Source: a virus
Lineage: Duplodnaviria > Heunggongvirae > Uroviricota > Caudoviricetes
Strand: one strand, 5' to 3'
Virus record (IMG/VR): IMGVR_UViG_3300028413_000003
Coordinates: 104,465 to 168,464 of that record
Length of the DNA stretch: 64,000 bases
Part shown: piece by piece, positions 8,041 through 64,000 of the stretch
Layout of the letters: every line of letters begins with the position of its first letter
How positions within the stretch are numbered: the first letter of the stretch is position 1
Translations under genes and position numbers: made by a program
Notes under the pieces: model-generated
The model's database searches: none
Seen by the model: the letters and a program-made list of their open reading frames with translations, nothing else
What the model was told of the DNA's origin: nothing

Positions 8041-8957
8041 AAGAATTATGGACAGACAAGTACCGGCCTAAAACAATAGATGGGTATGTGTTTCGCGACG
8101 ACCAGCAACACTCGCAGGTAAAACAGTGGATAACCGGAAAGTCAATTCCGCATTTGATCTTATCTGGTACAGCGGGCACAGGAAAGACGTCAATGGCTAA
8201 AATGCTGATACACGAGCTTGATGTAGAAGACATGGATGTAATGGAAGTTAACGCTAGTAGAGAAACTGGAATTGACTTCATTCGTGATAGAATTGTTCCG
8301 TTCCTCAACACTATTCCATGGGGTGATTTCAAGGTAGTACTGTTAGACGAAGCAGACCGGCTGTCACCGCAGGGACAAGATTCACTGAAAGGTATCATTG
8401 AACAGTATTCTCCGTATGCTAGATTTATTATGACCACCAATAAGCCTAACATGATATCTCCGCCGTTGCACAGTCGATGCTTGCAATTCCACTTTGCTAA
8501 AATTGACCAAGTTGAATTTACTGCAAGAGTGGCACATGTTCTTATAGAAGAAAAAATACAGTTTGACATCGAAACGCTGGACAAGTATGTTAAAATTACA
8601 TACCCTGACTTACGGAAATGCATCGGTCTTATACAAGAGAATTCGATCAATGGATCTCTTACCTCTGCTGAGAAAGCTGACACCGGAATAGCTGACTGGA
8701 AAGTTAAAATGGTTGACTTGTTTAAAGAAGGCAAGATACACGATGCACGAAAGTTATTGTGCGGAACTGTTCGTTCAGACGATATGGAAGAAATTTATCG
8801 TTGGCTGTACGACAACATCGACTTGTTTGGCGAAGAAGAAAAACAGCAAAACGCAACACTTATAATCAAGCAGGGCCTAGTGGATCATACACTTGTGGCT
8901 GATCCTGAAATTAACCTAAGTGCAACCTTAATTAGATTGGCAAGATTAGATGTCTGA
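8037..8957 (+). CDS. Clamp loader AAA+ subunit (RFC small subunit/T4 gp44-like)
   Basis: LWTDKYRPKTI, Walker A GTAGTGKT, EVNAS, Walker B VLLDEAD, SRC motif. Confidence 0.92.
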   Translation: MKELWTDKYRPKTIDGYVFRDDQQHSQVKQWITGKSIPHLILSGTAGTGKTSMAKMLIHELDVEDMDVMEVNASRETGIDFIRDRIVPFLNTIPWGDFKVVLLDEADRLSPQGQDSLKGIIEQYSPYARFIMTTNKPNMISPPLHSRCLQFHFAKIDQVEFTARVAHVLIEEKIQFDIETLDKYVKITYPDLRKCIGLIQENSINGSLTSAEKADTGIADWKVKMVDLFKEGKIHDARKLLCGTVRSDDMEEIYRWLYDNIDLFGEEEKQQNATLIIKQGLVDHTLVADPEINLSATLIRLARLDV

Positions 8958-9207
8958 TAGAAAATTAAAGTTTATTTGGAAAACAGTATTAACTGCTATA
9001 AAATTTCCGTTTTTGATTTATATAGGAGTACTTCCATTTATTACAATATTTGGGCTTGCTCGAGGAATGCCTTTTCTTCCGGTGATGCTTACCCTATTAT
9101 TAATTGTTGGAATAATTTCCGAAGTAATTAGTGCTATACTACAAGCCAGAGATGTATTATTTCTTGAAAATAAGGATATGATTGCTACACTAAAAGGCAA
9201 GGAATGA
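8950..9207 (+). CDS. Hypothetical membrane protein
   Basis: 85 aa, two predicted TM helices. Confidence 0.55.
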   Translation: MSDRKLKFIWKTVLTAIKFPFLIYIGVLPFITIFGLARGMPFLPVMLTLLLIVGIISEVISAILQARDVLFLENKDMIATLKGKE

Positions 9208-51780: not shown

Positions 51781-52047
51781 ATGTCTGAACAAGAAACTAA
51801 CCCAAATGATCTTACAATTCAAGATCTTGCAACAATGAAGGGCATCATCGAAATTGCCAGTGAACGCAGTACATTTAAGCCTGCTGAAATGGCAGCCGTG
51901 GGGGTTGTTTATAACAAGCTTGATGCATTTCTAAAAGCTGTCGAAGCGCAACAAAAAGCAACAAAAGATATAGAAAGTGCAGAAGACACAGCAATTGTTG
52001 ATGCGGTTGCAGGGGCAAATACACACGAAAAAGAAGGATCAGCATAA
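51781..52047 (+). CDS. Hypothetical protein
   Basis: SD AAGGAG, ATG 51781; FKPAEM..VG..Y.KL..FL. Confidence 0.65.
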   Translation: MSEQETNPNDLTIQDLATMKGIIEIASERSTFKPAEMAAVGVVYNKLDAFLKAVEAQQKATKDIESAEDTAIVDAVAGANTHEKEGSA

Positions 52048-53148: not shown

Positions 53149-54102
53149 ATGTCACTGAGATTAAGACGCGGAACTGACGCCGAAAGAGAAGCGATTGTCT
53201 TTGATGCCGGCGAACTTGTCTACACAACAGACTTCAAGGAGCTGTGGGCAGGCGATGGTAGCACACCCGGCGGCATACTTGTTTCCAGTGCGCAAATTCC
53301 AGATAAGTTAATCCAAAATTTAAATCTTAATAGTAATAATATTGCCGGAACAGGCAATATTATTATAAGTGGTATTGTTCAAGCAGATCAGTTTATTGGA
53401 GCATTAGTAGGCGACGTAGTAGGATCAGTTTTTTCTGATGATTCAACGATCATCGTTAACGGTCAAACTGGTGTTGTTACTGCTTCACTGATAGGCGACG
53501 TAGTAGGATCAGTTTTTTCTGATGATTCAACGATCATTGTTAACGGAAACAACGGCTCTATTACAACAAATCAAATATTTGGCGATGCTGCACTCACATG
53601 CAGTAACGGAATCGGAGTTACAATAGTAGACACTGACGATTTCTCAGCATTACGGTTTATAAGAAATCAGTTAGATGATGATATTGCTGATCCAAATGTA
53701 CCAACTGCTTACGGAGTAGTGCGTTGGGAAAGAAATGATCAAGGTGGTCTAGGGACCACCGTTTACATGCAGGGCGGCAGCGACGGCTACAAGATATTTA
53801 ACTTAACTGGTGGTGTGTTTGATACTACAAAACAACTTCACTTCGATATGGGCGGAAGTCTTGGTGTTGGGAAAAGTCCAACTACAAAATTAGATGTCAA
53901 CGGTGCAGGCGCGTTTAGCGAAGGCGTCGCTGCTGATTCAATTACGAGTTCGTCTTATGTCCAGTTTGGAAGTATTACAACCACAGCTCGCAATGCATTA
54001 ACAGCAGTCAACGGCATGGTTGTGTACAATACAACTGATGACAGATTTCAGGGATATCAGGCAGGTGCATGGATTAATCTCGACGACGGAACTGCTGCAT
54101 AA
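53149..54102 (+). CDS. Tail-fibre/virion protein
   Basis: N-terminal LRLRRGT...GELVYTTD..ELWAGDG fibre-anchor motif; GATAAATA at 53106. Confidence 0.65.
   Translation: MSLRLRRGTDAEREAIVFDAGELVYTTDFKELWAGDGSTPGGILVSSAQIPDKLIQNLNLNSNNIAGTGNIIISGIVQADQFIGALVGDVVGSVFSDDSTIIVNGQTGVVTASLIGDVVGSVFSDDSTIIVNGNNGSITTNQIFGDAALTCSNGIGVTIVDTDDFSALRFIRNQLDDDIADPNVPTAYGVVRWERNDQGGLGTTVYMQGGSDGYKIFNLTGGVFDTTKQLHFDMGGSLGVGKSPTTKLDVNGAGAFSEGVAADSITSSSYVQFGSITTTARNALTAVNGMVVYNTTDDRFQGYQAGAWINLDDGTAA
53408..53546 (+). repeat. 55-bp direct repeat, 84-bp period
   Basis: 53408-53462 and 53492-53546, one mismatch; encodes GDVVGSVFSDDSTIIVNG twice. Confidence 0.9.
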
Positions 54103-54105
54103 TTC

Positions 54106-54756
54106 GTGATTGAAATTGATTTACCATATGGTGTTTTAGAAGCGTTTACTAACTTATCCGCTAATGGTGTTAAGACGGTAATGAAAGACTTGTCTATAAT
54201 CGAAGAGCAAGAAACTATTAAAAGTATTGCAGACAAGTTTATAGACACGTCGTGCTTCCATTATGGAAATTTATTTAATCATACACAGCCGTTTGCAATA
54301 CACAGCGATGTTAGTATTAAAAAAGAATCAATATTATTAATTCCTATCTATGCTAGTGTAGAACAGAAGTTTATTGTTTTCGATCAAACTGTAGAGTCAG
54401 ACTCTGAGATATCGTGGATATATAATATTTTTGACGATAAATCCAACGAAGAACTAAAAGAAATGTATTACGATTCTTCAATTAAAAGCAGACCGTGCGA
54501 TACTAATTCAGTTAAGGGATGTACTAGAAACCCTGTATCAAATGGCCTATATAAGTTCTTACCGTATACCAAAGAGTTGTATCACGGACTTACAGGAATT
54601 GCATGGAATTACACACCAGGAAAAGCATTGTTATTTCCTGCAAATAGAATACATGCCACCGGAAGAATGTCTTCTAGTAAAATAGGATGTACTATTCAGT
54701 TTACTGATTCAGTAGACAATCTTTTGATTTCAGCATCAACACGCACCCTATCTTGA
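54106..54756 (+). CDS. Putative Fe(II)/2OG oxygenase-like protein, paralog of 54701-55375
   Basis: IHSD...QKFIVFDQ...RPCDT...YHGLTG...TPGK...IHATG...KIGC. Confidence 0.55.
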   Translation: MIEIDLPYGVLEAFTNLSANGVKTVMKDLSIIEEQETIKSIADKFIDTSCFHYGNLFNHTQPFAIHSDVSIKKESILLIPIYASVEQKFIVFDQTVESDSEISWIYNIFDDKSNEELKEMYYDSSIKSRPCDTNSVKGCTRNPVSNGLYKFLPYTKELYHGLTGIAWNYTPGKALLFPANRIHATGRMSSSKIGCTIQFTDSVDNLLISASTRTLS

Positions 54757-55375
54757 ATTTTGTTTGAATTCCAGTTCCGTGTAATTGACTGCTTTTGAAG
54801 ATCAATCCCTTCCCGGGAGTTTGCACCCATGAACTTCCAGTTAGTCCGTGATAAAAATTATGTACAAACGGCAAATCGTCCTTTATACTTTCGTTGACAG
54901 GCTGGTCAGTTAGATAATTAACTCCAACAGTATCACATGGTCGACGGTCAGTATAACAAATACTTTTGATATGATCGTTATCTTTTTTACTGCTAACTAA
55001 ATCACTTTCAAGAAGAGAAGTGTGACGTTTTTGTTCGACACCGTTAACTTGCCACTCACATCCTGATTGGTCAAACTCTTGATCAAACACAATAAATTTC
55101 TGTTGGGTGTCTAATACGTATATAGGAACATTTAGATTATATATAGCTTCTGAATTATATCTGTCTACGTGTAGAGGAATCGTTTCATCATGTGCATAGA
55201 TGTAGGCGGTGCTAACAGTGTTTAGATTTAATAGTTTTTTAAATGCGGTTTCTAGAAGATCTGAATTTACTTTTGTGTAAAATGGAAACTCTCCTAATGT
55301 TCTATTGCCCAAATTATTTATAACATGGGCGTATAAGACATCAACAGTTTCAAGTGGTATATCTAATTCAATCAT
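54701..55375 (-). CDS. Putative Fe(II)/2OG oxygenase-like protein, paralog of 54106-54756
   Basis: LHVD...QKFIVFDQ...RPCDT...YHGLTG...TPGK...LHGTG...KIGC. Confidence 0.55.
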   Translation of the reverse strand: MIELDIPLETVDVLYAHVINNLGNRTLGEFPFYTKVNSDLLETAFKKLLNLNTVSTAYIYAHDETIPLHVDRYNSEAIYNLNVPIYVLDTQQKFIVFDQEFDQSGCEWQVNGVEQKRHTSLLESDLVSSKKDNDHIKSICYTDRRPCDTVGVNYLTDQPVNESIKDDLPFVHNFYHGLTGSSWVQTPGKGLIFKSSQLHGTGIQTKFKIGCVLMLKSKDCLLNQ

Positions 55376-55983
55376 AGGTTCTCTAAATCGCAGGTGCCGT
55401 CTAAGCTAAACATTAGTGCAATACGAGGACTACTACTCATGTTGATCACAGCATGTGGATATCCAATGTTTAAGAAGTATGCATTGCCGTTTTCAAGATT
55501 ATATGCTTCAAGCTTGTCGTCACGACGAAAGAGATTTACTGCTTGTTTATCACCATAGATAGGTACTATACATCTCACAGCATAACTTACATCGTAGTCG
55601 ACGTGAAATGGTATAGTTTTGCCTGGAGCAAGTTTGGTGATACGTACACGACTAGCAGGCGCCTTACACTGCTGTATAACGCTCTGTATATAGCTGTTAG
55701 TATACTCGGCAGTTGGGATGTTGTAAAGATGCTCTTCTCTGCGTCTTAGTCGCTCTTTGATGCTTGAAGCATGTGGCAAAACCTCACTTGGCATAGTAAG
55801 GTTAATTTGTTCAAAGTTGTCATAAACATCCTTAACCAAGTCTTCGTGATTCATGCACAGTCCAGGGTTGGCTGTTCGCACGTCTACAAACTTGTCAGCC
55901 AGGAAATCACATTCTTTTCTTAATTCAGTTAGGTCAATATTTAAACCAAGGTTTGCTAAACTGGGTAATTGATGTTTATTCAT
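55372..55983 (-). CDS. Asp/Asn beta-hydroxylase-like 2OG-Fe(II) dioxygenase
   Basis: RVRITKLAPGKTIPFHVD...NIGYPHAVIN...PRIALM. Confidence 0.75.
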   Translation of the reverse strand: MNKHQLPSLANLGLNIDLTELRKECDFLADKFVDVRTANPGLCMNHEDLVKDVYDNFEQINLTMPSEVLPHASSIKERLRRREEHLYNIPTAEYTNSYIQSVIQQCKAPASRVRITKLAPGKTIPFHVDYDVSYAVRCIVPIYGDKQAVNLFRRDDKLEAYNLENGNAYFLNIGYPHAVINMSSSPRIALMFSLDGTCDLENL

Positions 55984-56590
55984 AATTTTGTTTCCATTTG
56001 TTAAAGACAATCTTGATATCTTCTATATCGTCAAAGTATTTTTCGTAATCTATAAAATCGGATAGTTTGTAGTATTTTTTACTTACAGTATCTAAATCTT
56101 CATAATAATGTACACTACCAACAGCGCTATCTAGTTGTTCTTTGATTGTAAAAAATTGTTCTAAGCTCTTATTATAATCATGATTTGTGCGTGTAATGAT
56201 ATTTAGTTGATTGGGCATGCCATCGGCTTTCATAACGGCTGCTGTTGTCCAGTTTGTACTATCTTGAAATAAAAAACTTAAAAACCATTTCCACGTATCT
56301 CTTCTTTTTAAAATAACGATCTTGTCGTCTTTGTAGAAGTTCTTAAACCACGTGTTGTAATAGTCACCAAGATAGTTTATATGATGTTTGAATGTATAAT
56401 CAACTCCGTCTAACTTTTTATCTTCGAGAAATTTTATCTTTTGTTCTAACGTCATCAAAGTCTTTGTTGGATCTAAGAATTCTTCAATACCGATGTATTT
56501 AACGGTTGGTAATGTTAAATTATATGTGTGAATTGATTCGTAAGCATATGACGATCCGGCTCTAGGTGCGCTCAATAATACTTGCATCAA
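55976..56590 (-). CDS. Sulfotransferase-like protein
   Basis: PAPS-binding-like SAPRAGSSY, LKRRD..KWFLS, YYEDL. Confidence 0.6.
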   Translation of the reverse strand: MMQVLLSAPRAGSSYAYESIHTYNLTLPTVKYIGIEEFLDPTKTLMTLEQKIKFLEDKKLDGVDYTFKHHINYLGDYYNTWFKNFYKDDKIVILKRRDTWKWFLSFLFQDSTNWTTAAVMKADGMPNQLNIITRTNHDYNKSLEQFFTIKEQLDSAVGSVHYYEDLDTVSKKYYKLSDFIDYEKYFDDIEDIKIVFNKWKQNYE

Positions 56591-57170
56591 AATCTCTTGT
56601 TATAAAATCACTGCTGGGTTGCCAAACGTAAGACGGATTATTCAGTCGTATACTATAAACATACTGCAATATATTACCCGTTTTAAACAAAAAGTCTCTT
56701 TCTAATTGTAATGTTTGATACCACTCGGTTTTAGTATACTCGGTAAATGTGTTAACTGTCATTCTTCTTTTACGCTGGTATAATGCATTTATAGCACGTT
56801 TGGTAACATCGTGTGTAATATATAATATCTCAAACTGTTTTTTTCTTGCCCACGCAATTTGATAATCGGCCATACGCAATCCACAATGTGTAAACCTGTA
56901 ATCTTTTAAAATATGATATCGACACACTCGTGCAGATATTTTTGGGTCATTGGTATAATGACTGTGTTCTACTACACTAATACTGATTAACTTGTCATTA
57001 ACAAAGCACATCCATGTTTCCGTGGCAGGGTCGTCAGGATTATAGTTTGAGGTGGTAATACTGTTGTTCCCTTCGAGCCGAGATTGTCGTATAAAAGGAT
57101 AGATTAAATCCCTGTGTTTGTCGACATCCTCACTGTAAGTCTTAATTAAAATGGGATGTTGTAATTGCAT
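56562..57170 (-). CDS. GNAT-type acetyltransferase-like protein
   Basis: RVCRYHILKDYRFTHCG...QIAWARKKQFEILYIT...RAINALY. Confidence 0.5.
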   Translation of the reverse strand: MQLQHPILIKTYSEDVDKHRDLIYPFIRQSRLEGNNSITTSNYNPDDPATETWMCFVNDKLISISVVEHSHYTNDPKISARVCRYHILKDYRFTHCGLRMADYQIAWARKKQFEILYITHDVTKRAINALYQRKRRMTVNTFTEYTKTEWYQTLQLERDFLFKTGNILQYVYSIRLNNPSYVWQPSSDFITRDFDASIIERT

Positions 57171-57930
57171 ATTCTTTATACCTTTGATAACTCTTTTCTA
57201 GTAGTTCATGCCATAGTGGTAAATCATATACGCCATGAATTACAAGCTGCGCACGATCAGTGAAACTAAATCCTTTGTCGACACCGTGCTCAAATGTTGC
57301 GCCGTCGTACGCAAATGCATTTGTTTCTGGCGGCAACATTGGAAATATTCTAGTAGCACCGCTGTCTTTACTCATGTAAAAATGTTCTTTCTTCCAATCA
57401 GTTACATTACTCCATCTAAAATGCAAATGACTAGGGGCTTGTGCTTGCAATAATCCTTCTAAGAGTTTTTCTTCGTCGTAGTGCGGAGGAATTGGAGTAG
57501 GTGTTTGTACAAAAAAGATTTGATGAATACTCTTAAAAGGCAATGCTTCTACGTACTCAATAAGATCTGGAAATTCATCTCTAGCCCAGTTAAACCATTC
57601 GGGATTACTTCCTGGTGTACCACAATTATTAGATTTTAAAAACATCAAGGTTCCTACGTTTTCAGTTTTGTAAAAATCTTTCTGTTTTTGTTGATCGTTG
57701 TAGATCTGTGCAATACGTGCAAGGTTGATGTCTAAATACGGTAAGTCTATTGGTGTCCAAACCATATCTCTATATCCAACGTAATCGTTGTGTAAGCTGA
57801 GATCTTCCCAATTCGGCCTGTCTGGCCCAGGATTTCCTGGATCATTGTTTAAATATTGCCTATTAGGAATGTTATGTTCGTCATATTCTAACTTATGGTA
57901 TGTTTTTCTAAAGTTATTAGTATTCAACAT
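57142..57930 (-). CDS. Putative 2OG-Fe(II)/cupin oxygenase
   Basis: IPPHYDE...FEHGVD...RAQLVIHG (HxD...H...R). Confidence 0.55.
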   Translation of the reverse strand: MLNTNNFRKTYHKLEYDEHNIPNRQYLNNDPGNPGPDRPNWEDLSLHNDYVGYRDMVWTPIDLPYLDINLARIAQIYNDQQKQKDFYKTENVGTLMFLKSNNCGTPGSNPEWFNWARDEFPDLIEYVEALPFKSIHQIFFVQTPTPIPPHYDEEKLLEGLLQAQAPSHLHFRWSNVTDWKKEHFYMSKDSGATRIFPMLPPETNAFAYDGATFEHGVDKGFSFTDRAQLVIHGVYDLPLWHELLEKSYQRYKEYAITTSHFN

Positions 57931-58468
57931 CTATTATTGTCCTTTTTCCTACTTGTATATTCAAATCTAAGTTTATTATATTGCATTTATAATTTTTAGA
58001 AAAGTAATCCAGGTCTGTATACTGCAAATCTTCTGTGTTACTGTTGGTTACTTCGTGTACTATTGCATGCTTGGGTTTATAAAAGTCACATATACGGTTA
58101 AACATCTCGTGTGGCTTATTATCGTATATCAGTACACTGCTAAAAACAACTACATCAACATCAAACATAGGACGAATTAAGTATTTCCACGACCTAACAC
58201 AAAATTGGTGCTCTGGATACACTGTCATTGCCTTTTCGATAGGTTCTCTGCTGGTATCAAATCCGTAGTAATTATACTCGTAATTTGTTAAAAACTTGTT
58301 TAATGTGCCAACACGGCAACCAACATCTACTATACTTGTTAATTTGTTGCATTTAATAATATCTGCCATCGTCTTGTAAATTGGACTAGCATCAGGGCCG
58401 TCCAAATATGACATATCGGCAATACGGTATTGCTCATGAAGATTAGCAGTGCTGATAGTCACAAGCAA
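57917..58468 (-). CDS. Class I SAM-dependent methyltransferase
   Basis: SIVDVGCRVG, YYGFDTS, DVVVFSSVL. Confidence 0.75.
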   Translation of the reverse strand: MLVTISTANLHEQYRIADMSYLDGPDASPIYKTMADIIKCNKLTSIVDVGCRVGTLNKFLTNYEYNYYGFDTSREPIEKAMTVYPEHQFCVRSWKYLIRPMFDVDVVVFSSVLIYDNKPHEMFNRICDFYKPKHAIVHEVTNSNTEDLQYTDLDYFSKNYKCNIINLDLNIQVGKRTIIDVEY

Positions 58469-59240
58469 CCCTCCAGAGTAAGCGGTTTCTGTCTAGAACA
58501 GGAGTTCTTCGATGCAATGTAGTAAACTGATCCATCATAAGCAGATCACCTTTTTTAAATATATGGTGATACATGTGCCTAGACTTAAATATGTTTGGTT
58601 GTAACTTATCAATCATTTGTCGATGATCGATTTTTGTTTTTCCTTCCCATGCACCTACAATAAAGTGATACGGAAAGTAAAAATAATATTTGCCAGTATG
58701 AGGATGTATACCCACTAAATCACGTATGCTACCTTTATTCTTTTCCATGAATTCTAGTTCAGGATCGCCTTCATCTAAATTATACATGGTGTTATTTTGA
58801 AATTTTATTCGAATCTTAATACTTTTCCAATACTCCTGTTCGTCTTTGCTCATATCGTAGAACGGGTCGCTCGTATTGCAGACACTCAATGTGGTATTAA
58901 CATCTTCTTCTATACAATATAACGAAATTAATATCTTGTCAATTTGATGTCTGCTGTTACCGTTACTGTGCCATCCTAGCTCGGTGTCACCAAACATACC
59001 GACCTTATTACCATCGGTGTCTTTTTTTCCAGTTACTAGAAATATTTCAGGATGGTTCTTTGAATTCATAAACAAGTTAGGAGTTTCGCACTCTCCAAAC
59101 TGTTTCATTATGTCAACATATGTCTGCTCGGTCAGTTTCTGGTCATAAAATAATGCAAATCCAGTTGTTTGAATAGTGTGTGCTAGTTTACTAGGGCATA
59201 ACGTTGTTACGTCCTCGCTAGTTTTATATGGTGCTATCAA
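58443..59240 (-). CDS. TauD/TfdA-family 2OG-Fe(II) dioxygenase
   Basis: GWHSNG (N in place of the usual D), HPHTGK, GDLLMMDQFTTLHRR, R.LWR. Confidence 0.75.
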   Translation of the reverse strand: MIAPYKTSEDVTTLCPSKLAHTIQTTGFALFYDQKLTEQTYVDIMKQFGECETPNLFMNSKNHPEIFLVTGKKDTDGNKVGMFGDTELGWHSNGNSRHQIDKILISLYCIEEDVNTTLSVCNTSDPFYDMSKDEQEYWKSIKIRIKFQNNTMYNLDEGDPELEFMEKNKGSIRDLVGIHPHTGKYYFYFPYHFIVGAWEGKTKIDHRQMIDKLQPNIFKSRHMYHHIFKKGDLLMMDQFTTLHRRTPVLDRNRLLWRVACDYQHC

Positions 59241-60012
59241 GGTATTGTTCCTTTATTAAGTCGGCTATGCATAACCGGTTGGTTTGATTTCTTTTAAATT
59301 TGTTGTATATTGGGTTATCTGATGATGCTAACCATATTACATCACTTGATATTAAATCTAATTCAGTACATACTGTATCTTGATAGGGCTTAAGAGTGTT
59401 ATAAACCAAGTCAATCGGTATAGTTTCAATTAATCTTTCGCCTAGGCCCATGCTGTAGTAATTATAATATTTTGCATTTACATTTAATGGTTCTAAACAT
59501 CGATCTGGAGTTCTACTCCAGTAATAGCCAATTCGGTAGTTACGCAAGCCAAAACATTTACTAAAACTAAAGAATACCTTCTCGACGTTGTCAGGTATTT
59601 TAAAGTTGGTTACCCTTGTGCTTAACAAGTATGCAAGATCAAGTACAACAGGTTTATCAGTTGGAATGCTACAATAATTTCCATTAAAGCTAGCCGGATT
59701 TGTCCAATAATGTACGTCGCCAGTCTCCTGGCCACTTACCCATACGTAGTCACCTTTACGAATCTGTATTGCACGTTTTTCGTCTGTCATCCAGTAGTTT
59801 AATCCTTCTGTGATGCCGTTTAACGGATATAAATATTCAAATCCACTTAAATCACAGTACGGTTTTAAATATTCAGATATGTTACTAGAAAAGACACTAA
59901 CCTCGTCATGTTTTGTTAATGAAAAGTCATCAACAACATTAACTATTTCTTTAATAGGAAAACTACGTATTGCCATACTTTGCTGCATAAGCTGTGCGAT
60001 TCTGTCATTCAT
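59224..60012 (-). CDS. PLP-dependent aminotransferase-like protein
   Basis: NGITEG, NP, DLAY, SFSKCFGLRNYRIGY with the PLP lysine. Confidence 0.75.
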   Translation of the reverse strand: MNDRIAQLMQQSMAIRSFPIKEIVNVVDDFSLTKHDEVSVFSSNISEYLKPYCDLSGFEYLYPLNGITEGLNYWMTDEKRAIQIRKGDYVWVSGQETGDVHYWTNPASFNGNYCSIPTDKPVVLDLAYLLSTRVTNFKIPDNVEKVFFSFSKCFGLRNYRIGYYWSRTPDRCLEPLNVNAKYYNYYSMGLGERLIETIPIDLVYNTLKPYQDTVCTELDLISSDVIWLASSDNPIYNKFKRNQTNRLCIADLIKEQYLDSTI

Positions 60013-60656
60013 ATTACTTTGAATATTCTCTGTGCTATTAATTGCTGTGCTACCCAGCCCCCGGTGTCGTATTTGTGTAACCGTATTTTTCTAAAATTAT
60101 TATGGTGCTCTAAATGATATCCTTCGCCTGCTATTAACAAATTCAGCCAAGCATTATTTGTTGGGCCATCTTTGTGTCCTAGTGTGTTAAGTAAGCCAAA
60201 TCCTAGTTTAGCATGAACAAAGGGCATTAGTGCAAATGCAACAAAAAACTTAATCCCAATTAACAAAGACACAATCCAAACAACTATAATAATCTTAAAC
60301 CAATGCTTGTGGCAGAATACTAACATAGAGTTCTGATACAAGTCCTTTGCATACTTAATTGGAATACGAGGAATGTTCCACGTAGTACTTAACACTTTCC
60401 AGAATCCAATATGCTTAGGAGAGTGCGGGTCGTGTTCGGTGTCAGCATGCGCATGGTGTAATCGATGACTAGCTATCCATCCAATTGGCGATTTTATAAC
60501 AACAACCATTAACATTGCCAGTCCAATTGCTTCAAACCATTTTGGTACTGCAAATTGTCTGTGACAATAATATCGATGTAGCAGAATACTTGCTGCCCAG
60601 TGAGATATAATAGTTCCCCATAATAGACCAAGGAGTATAACATAAATCCAATCCAT
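60009..60656 (-). CDS. Membrane fatty acid desaturase
   Basis: Three His boxes HRYYCH, HRLHH, EGYHLEHH; TM segments. Confidence 0.88.
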   Translation of the reverse strand: MDWIYVILLGLLWGTIISHWAASILLHRYYCHRQFAVPKWFEAIGLAMLMVVVIKSPIGWIASHRLHHAHADTEHDPHSPKHIGFWKVLSTTWNIPRIPIKYAKDLYQNSMLVFCHKHWFKIIIVVWIVSLLIGIKFFVAFALMPFVHAKLGFGLLNTLGHKDGPTNNAWLNLLIAGEGYHLEHHNNFRKIRLHKYDTGGWVAQQLIAQRIFKVI

Positions 60657-61372
60657 TATATGTTTCTCACAATGTCAATACTATCTTGCCACGTCTTTGT
60701 ATTACTTTCAAAATTAATATTACAAATCACCCGATGTTTTGTTCCAGTATTAATTGCTTCATGCCACTGCTTGACATTCCACAATACCGGTTTATCAACT
60801 AGCGCATATCTACAAGCAACATCGTCATTTGTAAACAAGTACTTGTCAGATCCTTTGTTATATTTTTTCCAGTAATATTCGCTCCAGTATACTCCGACAT
60901 TTGGATCTTCTGGAATATAGCCGTCTACGTCTTCATACATAGGCCAACTTGTTAGTGTATTTTCGTCGCAGCCTGCAACTGGAAATATTAAACTTGCTAC
61001 ACTTGTTTTTGTATGGTGCCTGTGTCCAAAAAATAAGTGCTCAACTGCTTTGAATTCAGGCTGAGTCGGATCTGCTTGGAAGAACTTTAGGCTTTGTGTA
61101 AAACCGTGTTTGTGCAGGGCTTGTGAAAGTTCTTTATGCTCAATTAAGTCAGAGGTATTAATAACTTGCATAACCGGCTTGTCCGGATCATACAAGTTAT
61201 AATGGTCTTTATAGTTATTGATAAAGTAGTTGGTTTCTGGATGTTGTGTATATATGTTAGGAAGGTGTGCAAATATTTGCTGTATTTGCTCATATATAAA
61301 TTCTAAGCCGGGCGTCCACTCTAATTCATGTACAAAATCTTTTGCAAGTACTGGATCTGTTAATATTGGCAT
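60656..61372 (-). CDS. Putative cupin/2OG oxygenase
   Basis: GHRHH...NVKQWHEAINTGTKHRVICNI. Confidence 0.45.
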   Translation of the reverse strand: MPILTDPVLAKDFVHELEWTPGLEFIYEQIQQIFAHLPNIYTQHPETNYFINNYKDHYNLYDPDKPVMQVINTSDLIEHKELSQALHKHGFTQSLKFFQADPTQPEFKAVEHLFFGHRHHTKTSVASLIFPVAGCDENTLTSWPMYEDVDGYIPEDPNVGVYWSEYYWKKYNKGSDKYLFTNDDVACRYALVDKPVLWNVKQWHEAINTGTKHRVICNINFESNTKTWQDSIDIVRNI

Positions 61373-61941
61373 TATCGATTTCCTATTATTGTTGCTACTA
61401 AATGCGATCGAACACTTTTACTACCGTTGAAGACCGAATGCAAAATAGTAGTATCGGTAAAATACCATTTATTTTTTTCTAAATGCTTCACTTGATCATC
61501 AATTACCATAAAACACCCAGTGTGTGTGTCTATTGGGAAATGCACTCTTGGATGGTAGTCAACATGCCAAGACAAACATGTCTTGGGATGTAGATTCATT
61601 ATGCGCACTCTACCTAGGATATACTTATCACTAAGCGCATTGTATACTTTTTCAAAACTTGTATTTATAAATTGGTCACATAATATTGTAAAGTCGGATT
61701 CGTTAAGTATAACTTTATTTACAGGAACGTCAATATTTCCATCTTTGTCAACCGTTGAGTTATCCCAGTCGTAATACAAGCTACCGGTTCCTAATAAGTA
61801 GTCGGTATTTTTTCCTGGAAGAGTATTTAAACAAATTTGTGAACCATTATTATACTTAATAATGTTGTCATCTACTAATTTCGTTAGGTCGGTATGTAAG
61901 TCAAAGACCGGTAAGTCAGCAAGTTCAGTGAAATGTTTCAT
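61372..61941 (-). CDS. Asp/Asn beta-hydroxylase-like 2OG-Fe(II) dioxygenase
   Basis: GRVRIMNL...SWHVD...RVHFPI...DTTILHSVFNG...RSHLV; start moved to 61941 after ATAAATA. Confidence 0.75.
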   Translation of the reverse strand: MKHFTELADLPVFDLHTDLTKLVDDNIIKYNNGSQICLNTLPGKNTDYLLGTGSLYYDWDNSTVDKDGNIDVPVNKVILNESDFTILCDQFINTSFEKVYNALSDKYILGRVRIMNLHPKTCLSWHVDYHPRVHFPIDTHTGCFMVIDDQVKHLEKNKWYFTDTTILHSVFNGSKSVRSHLVATIIGNR

Positions 61942-61954
61942 ATTAGTATTTATG

Positions 61955-62922
61955 TTAAGGCAGTTTACGTTTTGGAATTTTAGAATCGGCACTGCTTACA
62001 CAACTGTCTGTTATGCACGGCATTGCTTTGTTAAATAATTTAAACCCAGTTTCGACATTACCGAGCGGCACATCATGACATGAGTAGCTTCGTTTAACCG
62101 ATCCGTCGGGTTCACGTATTATAATTCCTTGATACCCAGCGTTGCAACTCCATCCTTTGAATTTATTGAAGTTAAAAGCATTGAATCGTTCAGCTTGATC
62201 CATGTACCATTTTGTACCGTCCTTGTCTTTGAGTTCTATCTGCATATGCCACGGAACACTTGCGTCGTTGTTGCCTACTACTTCTTTTGGTATTTCAAAA
62301 GTTGCTTTGGGACGATTAGCCCATGTGCGTTTAGATTCTGTATAGGCGCGCTGCGGCATGCCGTTGTGCAATGCCTTGAGTATTTCTTCGGAATAACCGT
62401 CTACAATTCGAGAAGCAGTTGGGTCACTCATCGGCTTGAGCGTAACATTAATTCCTTGCTCATGAAAGAATAATGCGTTATTCCAATCTTTGTCGAACCA
62501 TTCAGGAACCATAACCATATTAATGGTAACTTGTACATCGTGTTCTTGGCAATATATCAACTTGTCTGCAAAGTCTTGCATTTTTGCAGTCGTGTCCAAG
62601 TGCTCTGTGTGCAAACTTGCAGTAATACTTGCGCGATGGAATGACTTTGTAATTTCTACATACTCCTCAAACCAGCTCATAGGGCGCGAGCAATTGCTGG
62701 TCATGTGTGTTGATGTGTAATTTGTAGACCCGACGTCAGCAGCAAGGTGTTTGAGCATGTCAAGGTACCCTGGGTGGAACGTGGGTTCGCCACCGCTCAA
62801 CGAAAAGTGAAAGCTGTTAAAGCCATTTTCTCTAGCTTGTCGTTTGATCTCGTCAATTGTTTTTAAACAAAGCTCGGTTGGCCTGTGATCTTTTTTATCA
62901 GATCGAGCGTAAGGCCAGCAAT
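61955..62922 (-). CDS. Radical SAM enzyme, exon 2
   Basis: (Y)CWPYARS...SLSGGEPT...TSN...SLHTE; C-terminal CNAGY...SYSC...C...CVSSAD; spliced product 371 aa. Confidence 0.85.
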
Positions 62923-63177
62923 CATATTGTTCAAACAGTGTCGTTAATACTGTCCCGGAACGTATCCAGCTGCATGTTACCATGCAGATCAGACTATATC
63001 ATCATCCCAGTTGTGGGATGCTCCCCGTTTCGACTCACATGAGCCTACGTCTTTCGACTAGTCGTTGAACCTTCTTTGTGTAACAAAGCTTGGCTGCTGA
63101 TTGCCCAAAAGCATGGGGTTTCCAGCAATTAAAGGAGTTTTCGACCATTGTTACCAATGGAAGTCGCATTGATGTTT
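62923..63177 (-). ncRNA. ORF-less group I intron (255 nt) in the radical SAM CxxxCxxC motif
   Basis: Same core as the polB intron; exon ends TCGT paired with GCGA; terminal G; removal restores CNYRCSYC. Confidence 0.92.
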
Positions 63178-63325
63178 ACGAACAGCGGTAGTTACAGAAG
63201 CGGCCCAAGATCCAGCTCACTGTAAATAGATCTCTGTATAGCATTGTTCGTTGCCCAACACTTACTATATCATCAAATGGTATTTTTGTGAAGTCATATT
63301 CACTCCATTTTAAATTATTGTTCAT
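63178..63325 (-). CDS. Radical SAM enzyme, exon 1 (missed by the ORF track)
   Basis: MNNNLKWSEYDFTKIPFDDIVSVGQRTMLYRDLFTVSWILGRFCNYRCS plus 1 nt; SD AAGGA. Confidence 0.85.
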
Positions 63326-63383
63326 ATATTTGCCATCCTTTGCATGATTTGGTTTGCTGTAATAAATCTTCTGTCATACGTTT

Positions 63384-63412
63384 AGTATAACACCATTGTA
63401 ATATTATGTCAA
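63384..63412 (-). promoter_or_regulatory. Sigma70-type promoter for the minus-strand enzyme cluster
   Basis: TTGACA-17 bp-TATACT on the minus strand. Confidence 0.6.
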
Positions 63413-63421
63413 CTATTTACT

Positions 63422-64000
63422 TTATAGCTGCTGTTTGGTAAAATGGTCACGATTATTTTGCTTGCACGCCTGTATACATTTGGGTATCTTGTTATCACTA
63501 TCCCACGAATTCATAATATCAGTAAATACCTTTCCGTGTAGTGCCTGCTTAACAGACACATTTGCCAAGTTAATATCATTTTTGTAATCGTTGTCAACTA
63601 GTATTTCTTCAAATCTATCCTTTGATTTTTCTGTTACTGAAAACTCCATCATCTTACTGTTGAGATGACAGCACGGAATGACATTACCCATGTGATTAAC
63701 AAATATACGCTTTTGGCCACTGTATTTGCAAGATATACATGGTGACTCATCAGCCTCTATTTTTTTGTGCGTTATACCACTAGTATCAGGTCGATGACTA
63801 ATAATGGTTTTAAAATCTTTAAACCCTTCGTCCTTGGCCAGTTGTTTTGCTATATGAGTTTGGTGCTGATTGTGTTCAAATTCAATATATTGCCAAACTG
63901 ATTGGCCGCCTGCTGCAATAAACGATCTATAATTGGTTTGTACCTTTTTAAAACTACTGCCTTCTCGGTAGATCTCACTTGTTTCGTCAGCTCCGTCGAT
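63422..64000 (-). CDS. Radical SAM enzyme with C-terminal Cys-rich (SPASM/twitch-like) domain, 5' end outside the window
   Basis: Frame open from the window edge: IDG...IYR...AGG...WQYI.F.HN.HQ, then C...GNVIPCC...C..AC. Confidence 0.75.
   Translation of the reverse strand: MDGADETSEIYREGSSFKKVQTNYRSFIAAGGQSVWQYIEFEHNQHQTHIAKQLAKDEGFKDFKTIISHRPDTSGITHKKIEADESPCISCKYSGQKRIFVNHMGNVIPCCHLNSKMMEFSVTEKSKDRFEEILVDNDYKNDINLANVSVKQALHGKVFTDIMNSWDSDNKIPKCIQACKQNNRDHFTKQQL

Follow-up and report, generated by a model that had tools for sequence, protein, structure and literature searches.

What does a giant phage do with a tightly packed run of oxygenases, radical S-adenosylmethionine (radical SAM) enzymes and group-transfer enzymes beside a tail-fibre-like gene, and is such a run one pathway or several? 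The question is raised by positions 54106-64000 of a 64,000-nt stretch of viral DNA (the window), which represents bases 104465-168464 of the 251-kb IMG/VR virus record IMGVR_UViG_3300028413_000003 (CheckV completeness 71%). In marine phages, few unexplained gene sets are as abundant as oxygenase/radical-SAM islands. An earlier note had read these 10 kb as a single pathway, made of enzyme types enriched in variable regions of marine T4-like phages. The analysis presented here resolves the island into two units of different inheritance, an oxygenase operon with a defined core (genes J, C, H, I and G) and a radical-SAM array, one gene of which (M) is predicted to be split by a group I intron. 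Enzyme families and gene neighbourhoods point to the region as the promoter-distal end of a two-module island, in which the operon would act on a single small lipid or amphiphile that bears an amine, and the array would tailor a sugar-type substrate, a reading held with even confidence. Judged by its DNA polymerase (PolB), which is closest to those of PA5oct, Atu_ph07 and Vibrio jumbo phages (44-48% identity), the source is an uncultured marine jumbo (giant) phage and not a cyanophage-type T4-like one.

As the earlier note had it, the region holds 13 minus-strand genes packed end to end and one convergent plus-strand gene (A), and no scaffold synthase (nonribosomal peptide synthetase, polyketide synthase or other) is found in the window. 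Successive minus-strand pairs from M exon 2 to B overlap by 1-38 nt each. The cluster does not stop at 64000: the minus-strand block continues past the window to ~115 kb (here and below, positions beyond 64000 are window equivalents), and 54106-64000 makes up the distal third of an enzyme island of ~30 kb (54.7-84.1 kb) with about 37 enzyme-type genes on the minus strand from ~84.1 down to 54.7 kb. Upstream of the island, on the same strand, lie baseplate-hub (tail-lysozyme), 4451-aa, tail Collar and Peptidase_G2 C-terminus fibre genes. At the other end a tail-fibre-like gene (53149-54102) converges on the island, and 24 related loci have a homologue that converges in the same way. Tail-related genes thus enclose the island at both ends. 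When the 10 kb were compared with GenBank phages by megablast, the sole match was short and related to the intron.

The distribution of these genes argues for two modules. The oxygenase module, a mobile operon (the cassette), has the order L-K-J-I-H-G-F-E-D-C-B plus the convergent paralogue A (12 genes). A search anchored on H, a TauD-type enzyme, returned 32 viral loci, and counts are taken over the 20 with distinct H orthologues: C is found in 19, and I, G and J in 18 each, with the full core J/C/H/I/G in 15 and the long form of the cassette in six. Only six of the 20 have M less than 10 kb from the cassette; in one locus (L107) the cassette occurs without any radical-SAM array and in another (L056) it is inverted. 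A short form, carrying a flavin mononucleotide (FMN) reductase and a peroxiredoxin, sits between ThyX/DnaB/UvsX genes, that is in a replication/nucleotide module with no fibre gene within 10 kb, and has a UDP-sugar dehydrogenase (UGDH) and an epimerase as neighbours. The two redox genes belong to the cassettes of Pelagibacter phage Mosig, L004 and L137 and are absent from the window. The long form adjoins Mtd_N-type fibre genes (Mtd_N/Laminin_G in other contigs) in the window, L105, L108, L140/141 and Mosig. Because M is near the cassette in so few loci, and because the short form occupies a replication module far from fibre genes, the oxygenase operon and the radical-SAM array are considered, on these neighbourhoods, to be independently inherited, and the idea of one 10-kb pathway is not supported. 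The outcome that the earlier note named as refuting its reading, free shuffling with no conserved core, is not what the relatives show: gene content is heavily shuffled around the radical-SAM anchor, but conserved cores exist (J/C/H/I/G in 15/20; M with a P-type radical SAM in 67/75). The cassette has a GC content of 0.36 against 0.40 for the genome. No paper treating it as a unit was found in the literature searched.

The nearest concrete relative of the cassette is Mosig_00072-00081 of Pelagibacter phage Mosig EXVC030M (MT647606.1, Kyanoviridae), which infects Ca. Pelagibacter ubique HTCC1062. Six genes are collinear, with tblastn identities to the window of 64% (J), 54% (I), 67% (H), 45% (G), 59% (E) and 68% (C), and are annotated in Mosig as FA desaturase, aminotransferase-like, TauD, methylase, N-acetyltransferase and Asp_Arg_Hydrox. 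As in the window, tail-fibre genes adjoin (the cassette is directly upstream of them) and radical SAM ('MoaA-like') genes stand on the other side; an ArnB-type sugar aminotransferase and a carbamoyltransferase lie beside the cassette. Unlike the window, Mosig has the FMN reductase and peroxiredoxin inside the cassette, lacks K, F, D, B and A as well as the M and P radical SAMs, and represents a different phage lineage. Its genome announcement annotates the cluster and does not discuss it. With a collinear copy in a cultured phage-host pair, the product can therefore be searched for directly by lipidomics or metabolomics.

The collinearity with Mosig bears out the tie to variable regions of marine T4-related phages drawn in the earlier note, as does the position of the island between fibre genes, which recalls the 'host recognition cluster' (HRC) known from pelagi- and cyanomyophages, a descriptive label that names no mechanism (Zaragoza-Solas et al. 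2020, PMC7029224). The HRC lies between vrlC and the neck gene gp14 of ~140-200-kb T4-like myophages (PMC7029224). Like the island, it is large, non-syntenic and set inside the structural module, combines tail fibres with seemingly unrelated enzymes, includes radical-SAM cassettes, UDP-glucose dehydrogenase and Asp/Asn hydroxylase, and is hypervariable between relatives (PMC7029224). The island is likewise a non-syntenic structural-module island with fibres, its gene content shuffled among 92 loci; it falls outside the vrlC-gp14 definition by its PA5oct/Atu_ph07-type PolB lineage, the vrlC and gp14 landmarks not having been searched for. Cassette and island are therefore of a mechanistically unexplained kind already known, of which they are a well-delimited further example.

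Features of the region are collected in Table 1. Firm family calls are Pfam matches above cut-off, and unannotated genes were tested by family alignments built from related contigs. Of the enzymes listed in the earlier note, Pfam supports the two radical SAMs, two Asp/Asn-hydroxylase types, TauD, the desaturase and the methyltransferase; the pyridoxal phosphate (PLP) enzyme, GNAT, sulfotransferase and four further oxygenases stand on weaker evidence. Its 'about seven' Fe/2-oxoglutarate (Fe/2OG) oxygenases become three firm ones (C, L and H by Pfam), one by fold (K) and three by motif (A, B and F), the H-x-D/E...H facial triad being firm via Pfam in C, L and H and invariant in the A/B and F families.

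Table 1. Coordinates of the features in the window and of the cobalamin-type insertions in related loci (aa, amino acids).
Feature	Position	Strand	Evidence
Tail-fibre-like gene, 317 aa	53149-54102	+	Mtd_N 27.1 bits (cut-off 26.3); PHROG tail fibre E 3.8e-6; synteny
A: paralogue of B, putative Fe/2OG facial triad	54106-54756	+	Alignment + hhalign
B: putative Fe/2OG oxygenase, final operon gene	54701-55375	-	Invariant triad; hhalign
C: Asp/Asn beta-hydroxylase-type Fe/2OG oxygenase (Asp_Arg_Hydrox), core cassette gene	55372-56010	-	PF05118 30.7 bits
D: sulfotransferase-like protein, long form only	55976-56590	-	Atlas lead + motif
E: GNAT-like acyltransferase, weak call	56562-57170	-	Pfam, Foldseek, Mosig orthologue
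F: putative Fe/2OG oxygenase	57142-57930	-	Motif + Atlas
G: class I SAM methyltransferase, core cassette gene	57917-58468	-	Methyltransf_23 41 bits
H: TauD/clavaminate-synthase-type Fe/2OG dioxygenase, core cassette gene	58443-59240	-	Pfam TauD 72.7 bits
I: short (262 aa) fold-type-I PLP enzyme, core cassette gene	59224-60012	-	Profile + invariant residues
J: membrane di-iron fatty-acid-desaturase-family protein, core cassette gene	60009-60656	-	FA_desaturase PF00487, 40.6 bits (cut-off 29.7)
K: double-stranded beta-helix, Fe/2OG-oxygenase-like (lead), long form only	60656-61372	-	Foldseek
L: Asp/Asn beta-hydroxylase-type Fe/2OG oxygenase (Asp_Arg_Hydrox)	61372-61992	-	PF05118 42.8 bits
M: radical SAM, 371 aa after predicted splicing, split gene	61955-63325	-	Pfam Radical_SAM
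M exon 2, residues 50-371	61955-62922	-	Radical_SAM; homologues
Group I intron, 255 nt, no open reading frame (ORF)	62923-63177	-	Rfam RF00028, polB comparison, homologues
M exon 1, residues 1-49 + first base of Tyr50 codon, first two Cys of CxxxCxxC	63178-63325	-	Splice model
Sigma-70-like promoter match (TTGACA-17-TATACT with TG; 11/12)	63384-63412	-	Consensus match only
N: radical SAM/SPASM, C-terminal part in window	63422->64000	-	Pfam Radical_SAM + SPASM
B12-type radical SAM insertions	L105:2320-3861, L108:7695-9230, L133:13277-14719, L111:6404-7843		

Within the core, J has three His boxes (HxxxxH, HxxHH, HxxHH) and four hydrophobic segments, the features of the PF00487 desaturase/hydroxylase family, together with a weak DesA-family match in NCBIfam, and is the sole membrane protein of the whole ~30-kb island. 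Profiles of I match HisC-like aminotransferase and Thr-phosphate-decarboxylase-like chains (E 1e-3 to 5e-3), with D124, Y127, S148, S150 and K151 invariant (S-x-S-K151 motif), and G has a weak UbiG-like NCBIfam match. For A and B, the family alignment keeps H68-x-D70...H198 invariant, and in hhalign the HxD segment pairs with the AspH family at E 0.0086 but with a probability of only 4.7%; B is confined to the long form, and A, which starts 4 nt past the fibre-like gene, overlaps B convergently by 56 nt at its 3' end. In F, H149-x-D151...H214...R225 is invariant and the Atlas lead is prolyl 4-hydroxylase (P4H)/AspH; hhalign of F and of K against the AspH family was not significant. Foldseek matches of K are nearly all Fe/2OG oxygenases (P4H, PolD, OGFOD1, AspH; E 7e-5 to 1e-3, TM about 0.4), a lead from a predicted model with a confidence score (pLDDT) of 63 in which the triad is unassigned. 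The GNAT fold of E is similarly a lead: Pfam Acetyltransf_1 is reached at E 0.17, and all Foldseek matches are GNAT, at E of at least 2e-3 from a poor predicted model (pLDDT 53); its Mosig orthologue (59% identical) was independently annotated as an N-acetyltransferase. For D, Atlas features give 0.95-0.97 to Stf0/Sulfotransfer_3 clusters and P8, R9, G11, S12 and S13 are invariant (a P-R-x-G-S-S loop, like the loop that binds the sulfate donor PAPS), with zero matches in Pfam and PDB sequence searches. Profiles built for the D, F, K, A/B, E, Z and AC families had no match among PDB sequences, and a PHROGs search of the unannotated genes gave nothing useful.

The radical-SAM module was followed by a search anchored on M, in which 80 viral and 11 'bacterial' loci were fetched; the comparison set comprises 92 loci, 75 of them distinct M loci. 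M is found in all 92 at about 81% identity, nearly always beside P-type radical-SAM arrays (with a P-type radical SAM in 67 of the 75 distinct loci). Gene content after M is highly variable; L usually follows directly, being present in 38/75. Several thousand uninterrupted homologues of ~370 aa share 80-88% identity with M. A search of a GenBank phage collection gave no match to M. In bacterial metagenome-assembled genomes (MAGs), including one 2.9-Mb chromosome, identity is 55-63%, and in all four bacterial contexts examined (two Bacteriovoracaceae, one Bdellovibrionales, one Parcubacteria) M stands among radical SAMs adjoining family 2 glycosyltransferases (GT2). Conserved at about 80% across thousands of environmental sequences and shared with predatory bacteria, M is therefore a good target for enzymology.

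The island has an array of seven radical SAMs, of which M and N are the last two; all have CxxxCxxC, which M (at residue 44) would acquire only after splicing. N extends as a whole gene to 64363 (313 aa), and five further radical SAMs lie beyond the window, of which P is a clear N_Twi_rSAM (NF033640; 417.7 bits against a cut-off of 170 that M, with 27.2, and N, with 45.3, do not reach). No description of the function of this family was found in the literature searched. The sequence beyond 64000, where the earlier note allowed for a precursor or scaffold gene, holds tailoring enzymes and a conserved 81-aa ORF (75525-75770) between two island genes. Among the former are a UDP-glucose dehydrogenase, two SGNH-like paralogues, T (69626-70228) and W (72643-73242), the PP-loop QueC-like protein Q (67021-67881; L003:4021-4881), with invariant SGGxDS and a C-terminal CxxCxxC, and the paralogous DxD proteins AA and AC (hhalign E 2e-52), which have no Pfam or PDB sequence match. 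T and W both begin G-C-S-Y-T-x-G-H-G-L and resemble SGNH/GDSL hydrolases with Cys replacing Asp; the Q family recurs beside radical SAMs, often in multiple copies. The island has no transporter, flippase or polymerase. The NF033640 arrays of Bdellovibrionota/Parcubacteria MAGs resemble the island in clustering homologues of M, P, Y, Z, AA and AC and differ from it in that GT2 and GT-C genes can be recognised there and the oxygenase cassette is missing. Because GT2 genes accompany M in every bacterial context examined and the phage island holds genes of sugar type, the array is most likely a separate pathway that edits a sugar-type substrate, a glycan being ranked first.

What the operon acts on is approached through its core. 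A lipid or small amphiphile is ranked first because the core includes a membrane desaturase-family enzyme, from a family of hydrophobic substrates, together with a small-molecule-type PLP enzyme and a TauD-type dioxygenase, because the cassette also occurs in contexts without fibres or glycosyltransferases, and because the short form supplies its own redox helpers. Enzymes of the PLP aminotransferase and TauD types have small-molecule substrates. The absence of a transporter, flippase and polymerase from the island was also counted for a lipid or small-molecule substrate, and the lipid inference of the earlier note, drawn from the desaturase, was judged reasonable given that J is the sole membrane protein and a member of the core. 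The operon would apparently be read from a promoter-like site (Table 1) that is the best of the region and sits in its sole intergenic gap; because this gap lies upstream of the intron-bearing M, M to B may be a 12-gene unit with its own transcript. There is no enrichment of the T4 late promoter TATAAATA (4 seen versus 5.6 expected), and sites resembling terminators occur no more often than in shuffled sequence. In the infected cell, the enzymes would act on a common low-molecular-weight amine-bearing lipid or amphiphile: the PLP enzyme would install or move the amine, the GNAT, methyltransferase and sulfotransferase would cap the amine-bearing molecule, and the membrane di-iron desaturase/hydroxylase with five to seven Fe/2OG oxygenases would oxidise C-H bonds. 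The outcome would be an altered host envelope or metabolite pool rather than modified virion proteins, and the radical-SAM array would separately edit its sugar-type substrate.

Several observations weigh against this assignment. The adjacency of the long form to Mtd_N-type fibre genes in several independent contexts fits a virion-directed role too and is unexplained by a lipid substrate; Asp/Asn hydroxylase and P4H-type folds are classically protein hydroxylases; the combination of aminotransferase, acetyltransferase, methyltransferase and sulfotransferase is typical of sugar tailoring as well; and the short form has a UDP-sugar dehydrogenase and an epimerase nearby. The operon itself is read from gene overlaps and a consensus promoter match only, the calls for A, B, D, E, F and K are weak, and NCBIfam holds no equivalog for any cassette gene. 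An ornithine-lipid/LpxO-type assignment, considered on family grounds, found no specific NCBIfam support and is a possibility only. Computation does not distinguish virion protein, lipid, peptide and DNA, the candidates of the earlier note, as substrates. A bolder version, of low probability, would make the operon a complete, horizontally mobile pathway for an undescribed membrane amino-lipid or headgroup modification (aminated, N-acylated, methylated, sulfated and multiply hydroxylated), installed in the host envelope late in infection by very different phage lineages. If true, such a change could block superinfection or free progeny from receptor-bearing debris, and the travelling of the long form with tail-fibre genes would therefore be explained.

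The rival that survives best, itself unlikely, is that both modules decorate a glycan, the cassette tailoring nucleotide-sugars or the growing chain by amination, N-acetylation, O-methylation, sulfation and hydroxylation, and glycosyltransferase-like proteins further up the island building a chain that ends on the virion or the host surface. The UDP-glucose dehydrogenase, the SGNH-like paralogues, the PP-loop amidotransferase-like protein and the DxD paralogues of the island speak for it, as do the GT2 genes next to M in every bacterial context, the ArnB-type aminotransferase and carbamoyltransferase beside the Mosig cassette, and the UGDH and epimerase near the short form. However, the PLP enzyme of the cassette is HisC-like and not of the DegT/ArnB sugar-aminotransferase type, sugar tailoring does not ordinarily involve a membrane desaturase-family protein, AA and AC have a GT-A fold that is putative only (no Pfam or PDB sequence match), and the cassette moves independently of the glycosyltransferase and radical-SAM genes.

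Modification of virion proteins, chiefly of the tail fibres next to the island, through hydroxylation, methylation, acetylation and sulfation that would alter receptor binding or stability, is improbable, though it and the glycan reading are serious rivals. It would account for the island lying between fibre genes, with A starting 4 nt past one of them, for the long cassette beside Mtd_N/Laminin_G fibres in other contigs and in Mosig, and for the AspH and P4H folds, which are those of protein hydroxylases. Yet the short form sits in a replication module with no fibre gene nearby, and three cassette enzymes (PLP, TauD-type and membrane desaturase) come from families that do not modify proteins. 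A more specific variant, with collagen-like fibres as substrates of the hydroxylases, was rejected for the adjacent fibre genes because they lack Gly-X-Y runs and thus collagen-like repeats.

Still lower stands a pathway like that of ribosomally synthesised and post-translationally modified peptides, in which radical SAM/SPASM maturases and hydroxylases would tailor a small ribosomal peptide; this is highly improbable. SPASM/twitch radical SAMs are typical peptide maturases, those of the island have weak NCBIfam matches to many such maturases, and the conserved 81-aa ORF lies between two island genes. These NCBIfam matches are, however, all far below cut-offs, no precursor-like short ORF occurs in or beside the part in the window, no protease, transporter/exporter or recognisable leader-binding protein was found in the island, and the bacterial homologues adjoin glycosyltransferases and not peptides. 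Modification of phage DNA or RNA bases is barely credible: TET/JBP-type 2OG oxygenases and QueE-type radical SAMs modify bases and a QueC-like PP-loop family recurs in the island, but no oxygenase here matches TET/JBP or AlkB in Pfam, no radical SAM reaches the QueE cut-off, and the island has no DNA transglycosylase or glucosyltransferase.

The gene that leads the proposed transcription unit carries a further feature: M is readable only after a 255-nt group I intron is removed from the codons of its CxxxCxxC motif, a splicing event predicted as follows. Rfam RF00028 matches 62970-63239 on the minus strand with 100.2 bits (gathering score 50), and a sister intron in the split polB gene of the same phage (Rfam match 30152-30366) is 81% identical. 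Boundaries were set by aligning both copies and requiring that the polB splice restore K-x-x-x-N-S-L-Y-G, which puts one splice site after TCGT and the other after ...AAT(A)TG, some 48 nt past the end of the Rfam match. At the resulting M junction (T63178|A...G62923|A) there is a U before the 5' splice site and a terminal intron G. The junction falls within a Tyr codon, and the spliced product of 371 aa reads CNYRCSYCW, the canonical radical-SAM motif; uninterrupted M homologues (369-383 aa) match it residue for residue over the junction. Splice models ending at the Rfam boundary 62970 were rejected, as they bring in a stop codon or lose the third Cys. The fold of the intron beats all 200 shuffles (z = -3.5).

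M is uninterrupted in 88 of 92 related loci, and the intron occurs in two of about 90 homologous genes. The second instance (L043, IMGVR_UViG_3300037285_000249) has a same-site intron that is 76% identical, scores 94.8 bits in Rfam and shows compensatory changes in two hairpins. In its RF00028 match, 5' U, 3' G, lack of an ORF and sporadic occurrence the M intron is like other phage group I introns (T4 td, nrdB and nrdD, and the phage's own polB). Unlike the T4 introns, it has as host a radical SAM gene and not one of nucleotide metabolism or replication, and it splits an Fe-S motif. No report of a group I intron in a radical SAM gene was found in the literature searched; the M intron widens the host genes of phage group I introns beyond DNA and nucleotide metabolism.

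Some observations stand apart from these arguments. Cassettes of relatives are interrupted by B12-binding radical SAM genes (480-514 aa; Table 1), between J and I or between D and C, which are absent from the window. In L105, the closest relative of 54106-61992, F to A are 90-96% identical to the window and I, H and G 65-79%, a mosaic that suggests recombination inside the operon. Contig L140 (ENA ERZ27295564 k141_1280142, 29,993 bp) joins the 12-gene cassette and Mtd_N/Laminin_G fibres to atpB, atpE, psbK, ycf9 and a ClpC-like gene, a set typical of plastid or cyanobacterial genomes, and is either an assembly chimera or unusual phage cargo. Two contigs of MAGs labelled Gammaproteobacteria MED685 (L087) and Rickettsiales MED657 (L088) carry M at 72-82% identity with phage-type neighbours, including a homologue of the gene at 52047 of the window; they are probably phage contigs binned into MAGs. 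A long collagen-like Gly-X-Y ORF lies on the plus strand at the contig end, far from the island (genome position ~249,990, window equivalent ~145,526). At 27122-32209 of the window, PolB is in pieces together with a homing-endonuclease gene and the sister intron, and the predicted splice joins KINLNS|LYGA. Finally, L043 contains at 8836-8958 a second copy of exon-1 codons 1-41, 90% identical and about 640 nt upstream of the real exon 1, which may be a scar of intron or endonuclease activity.

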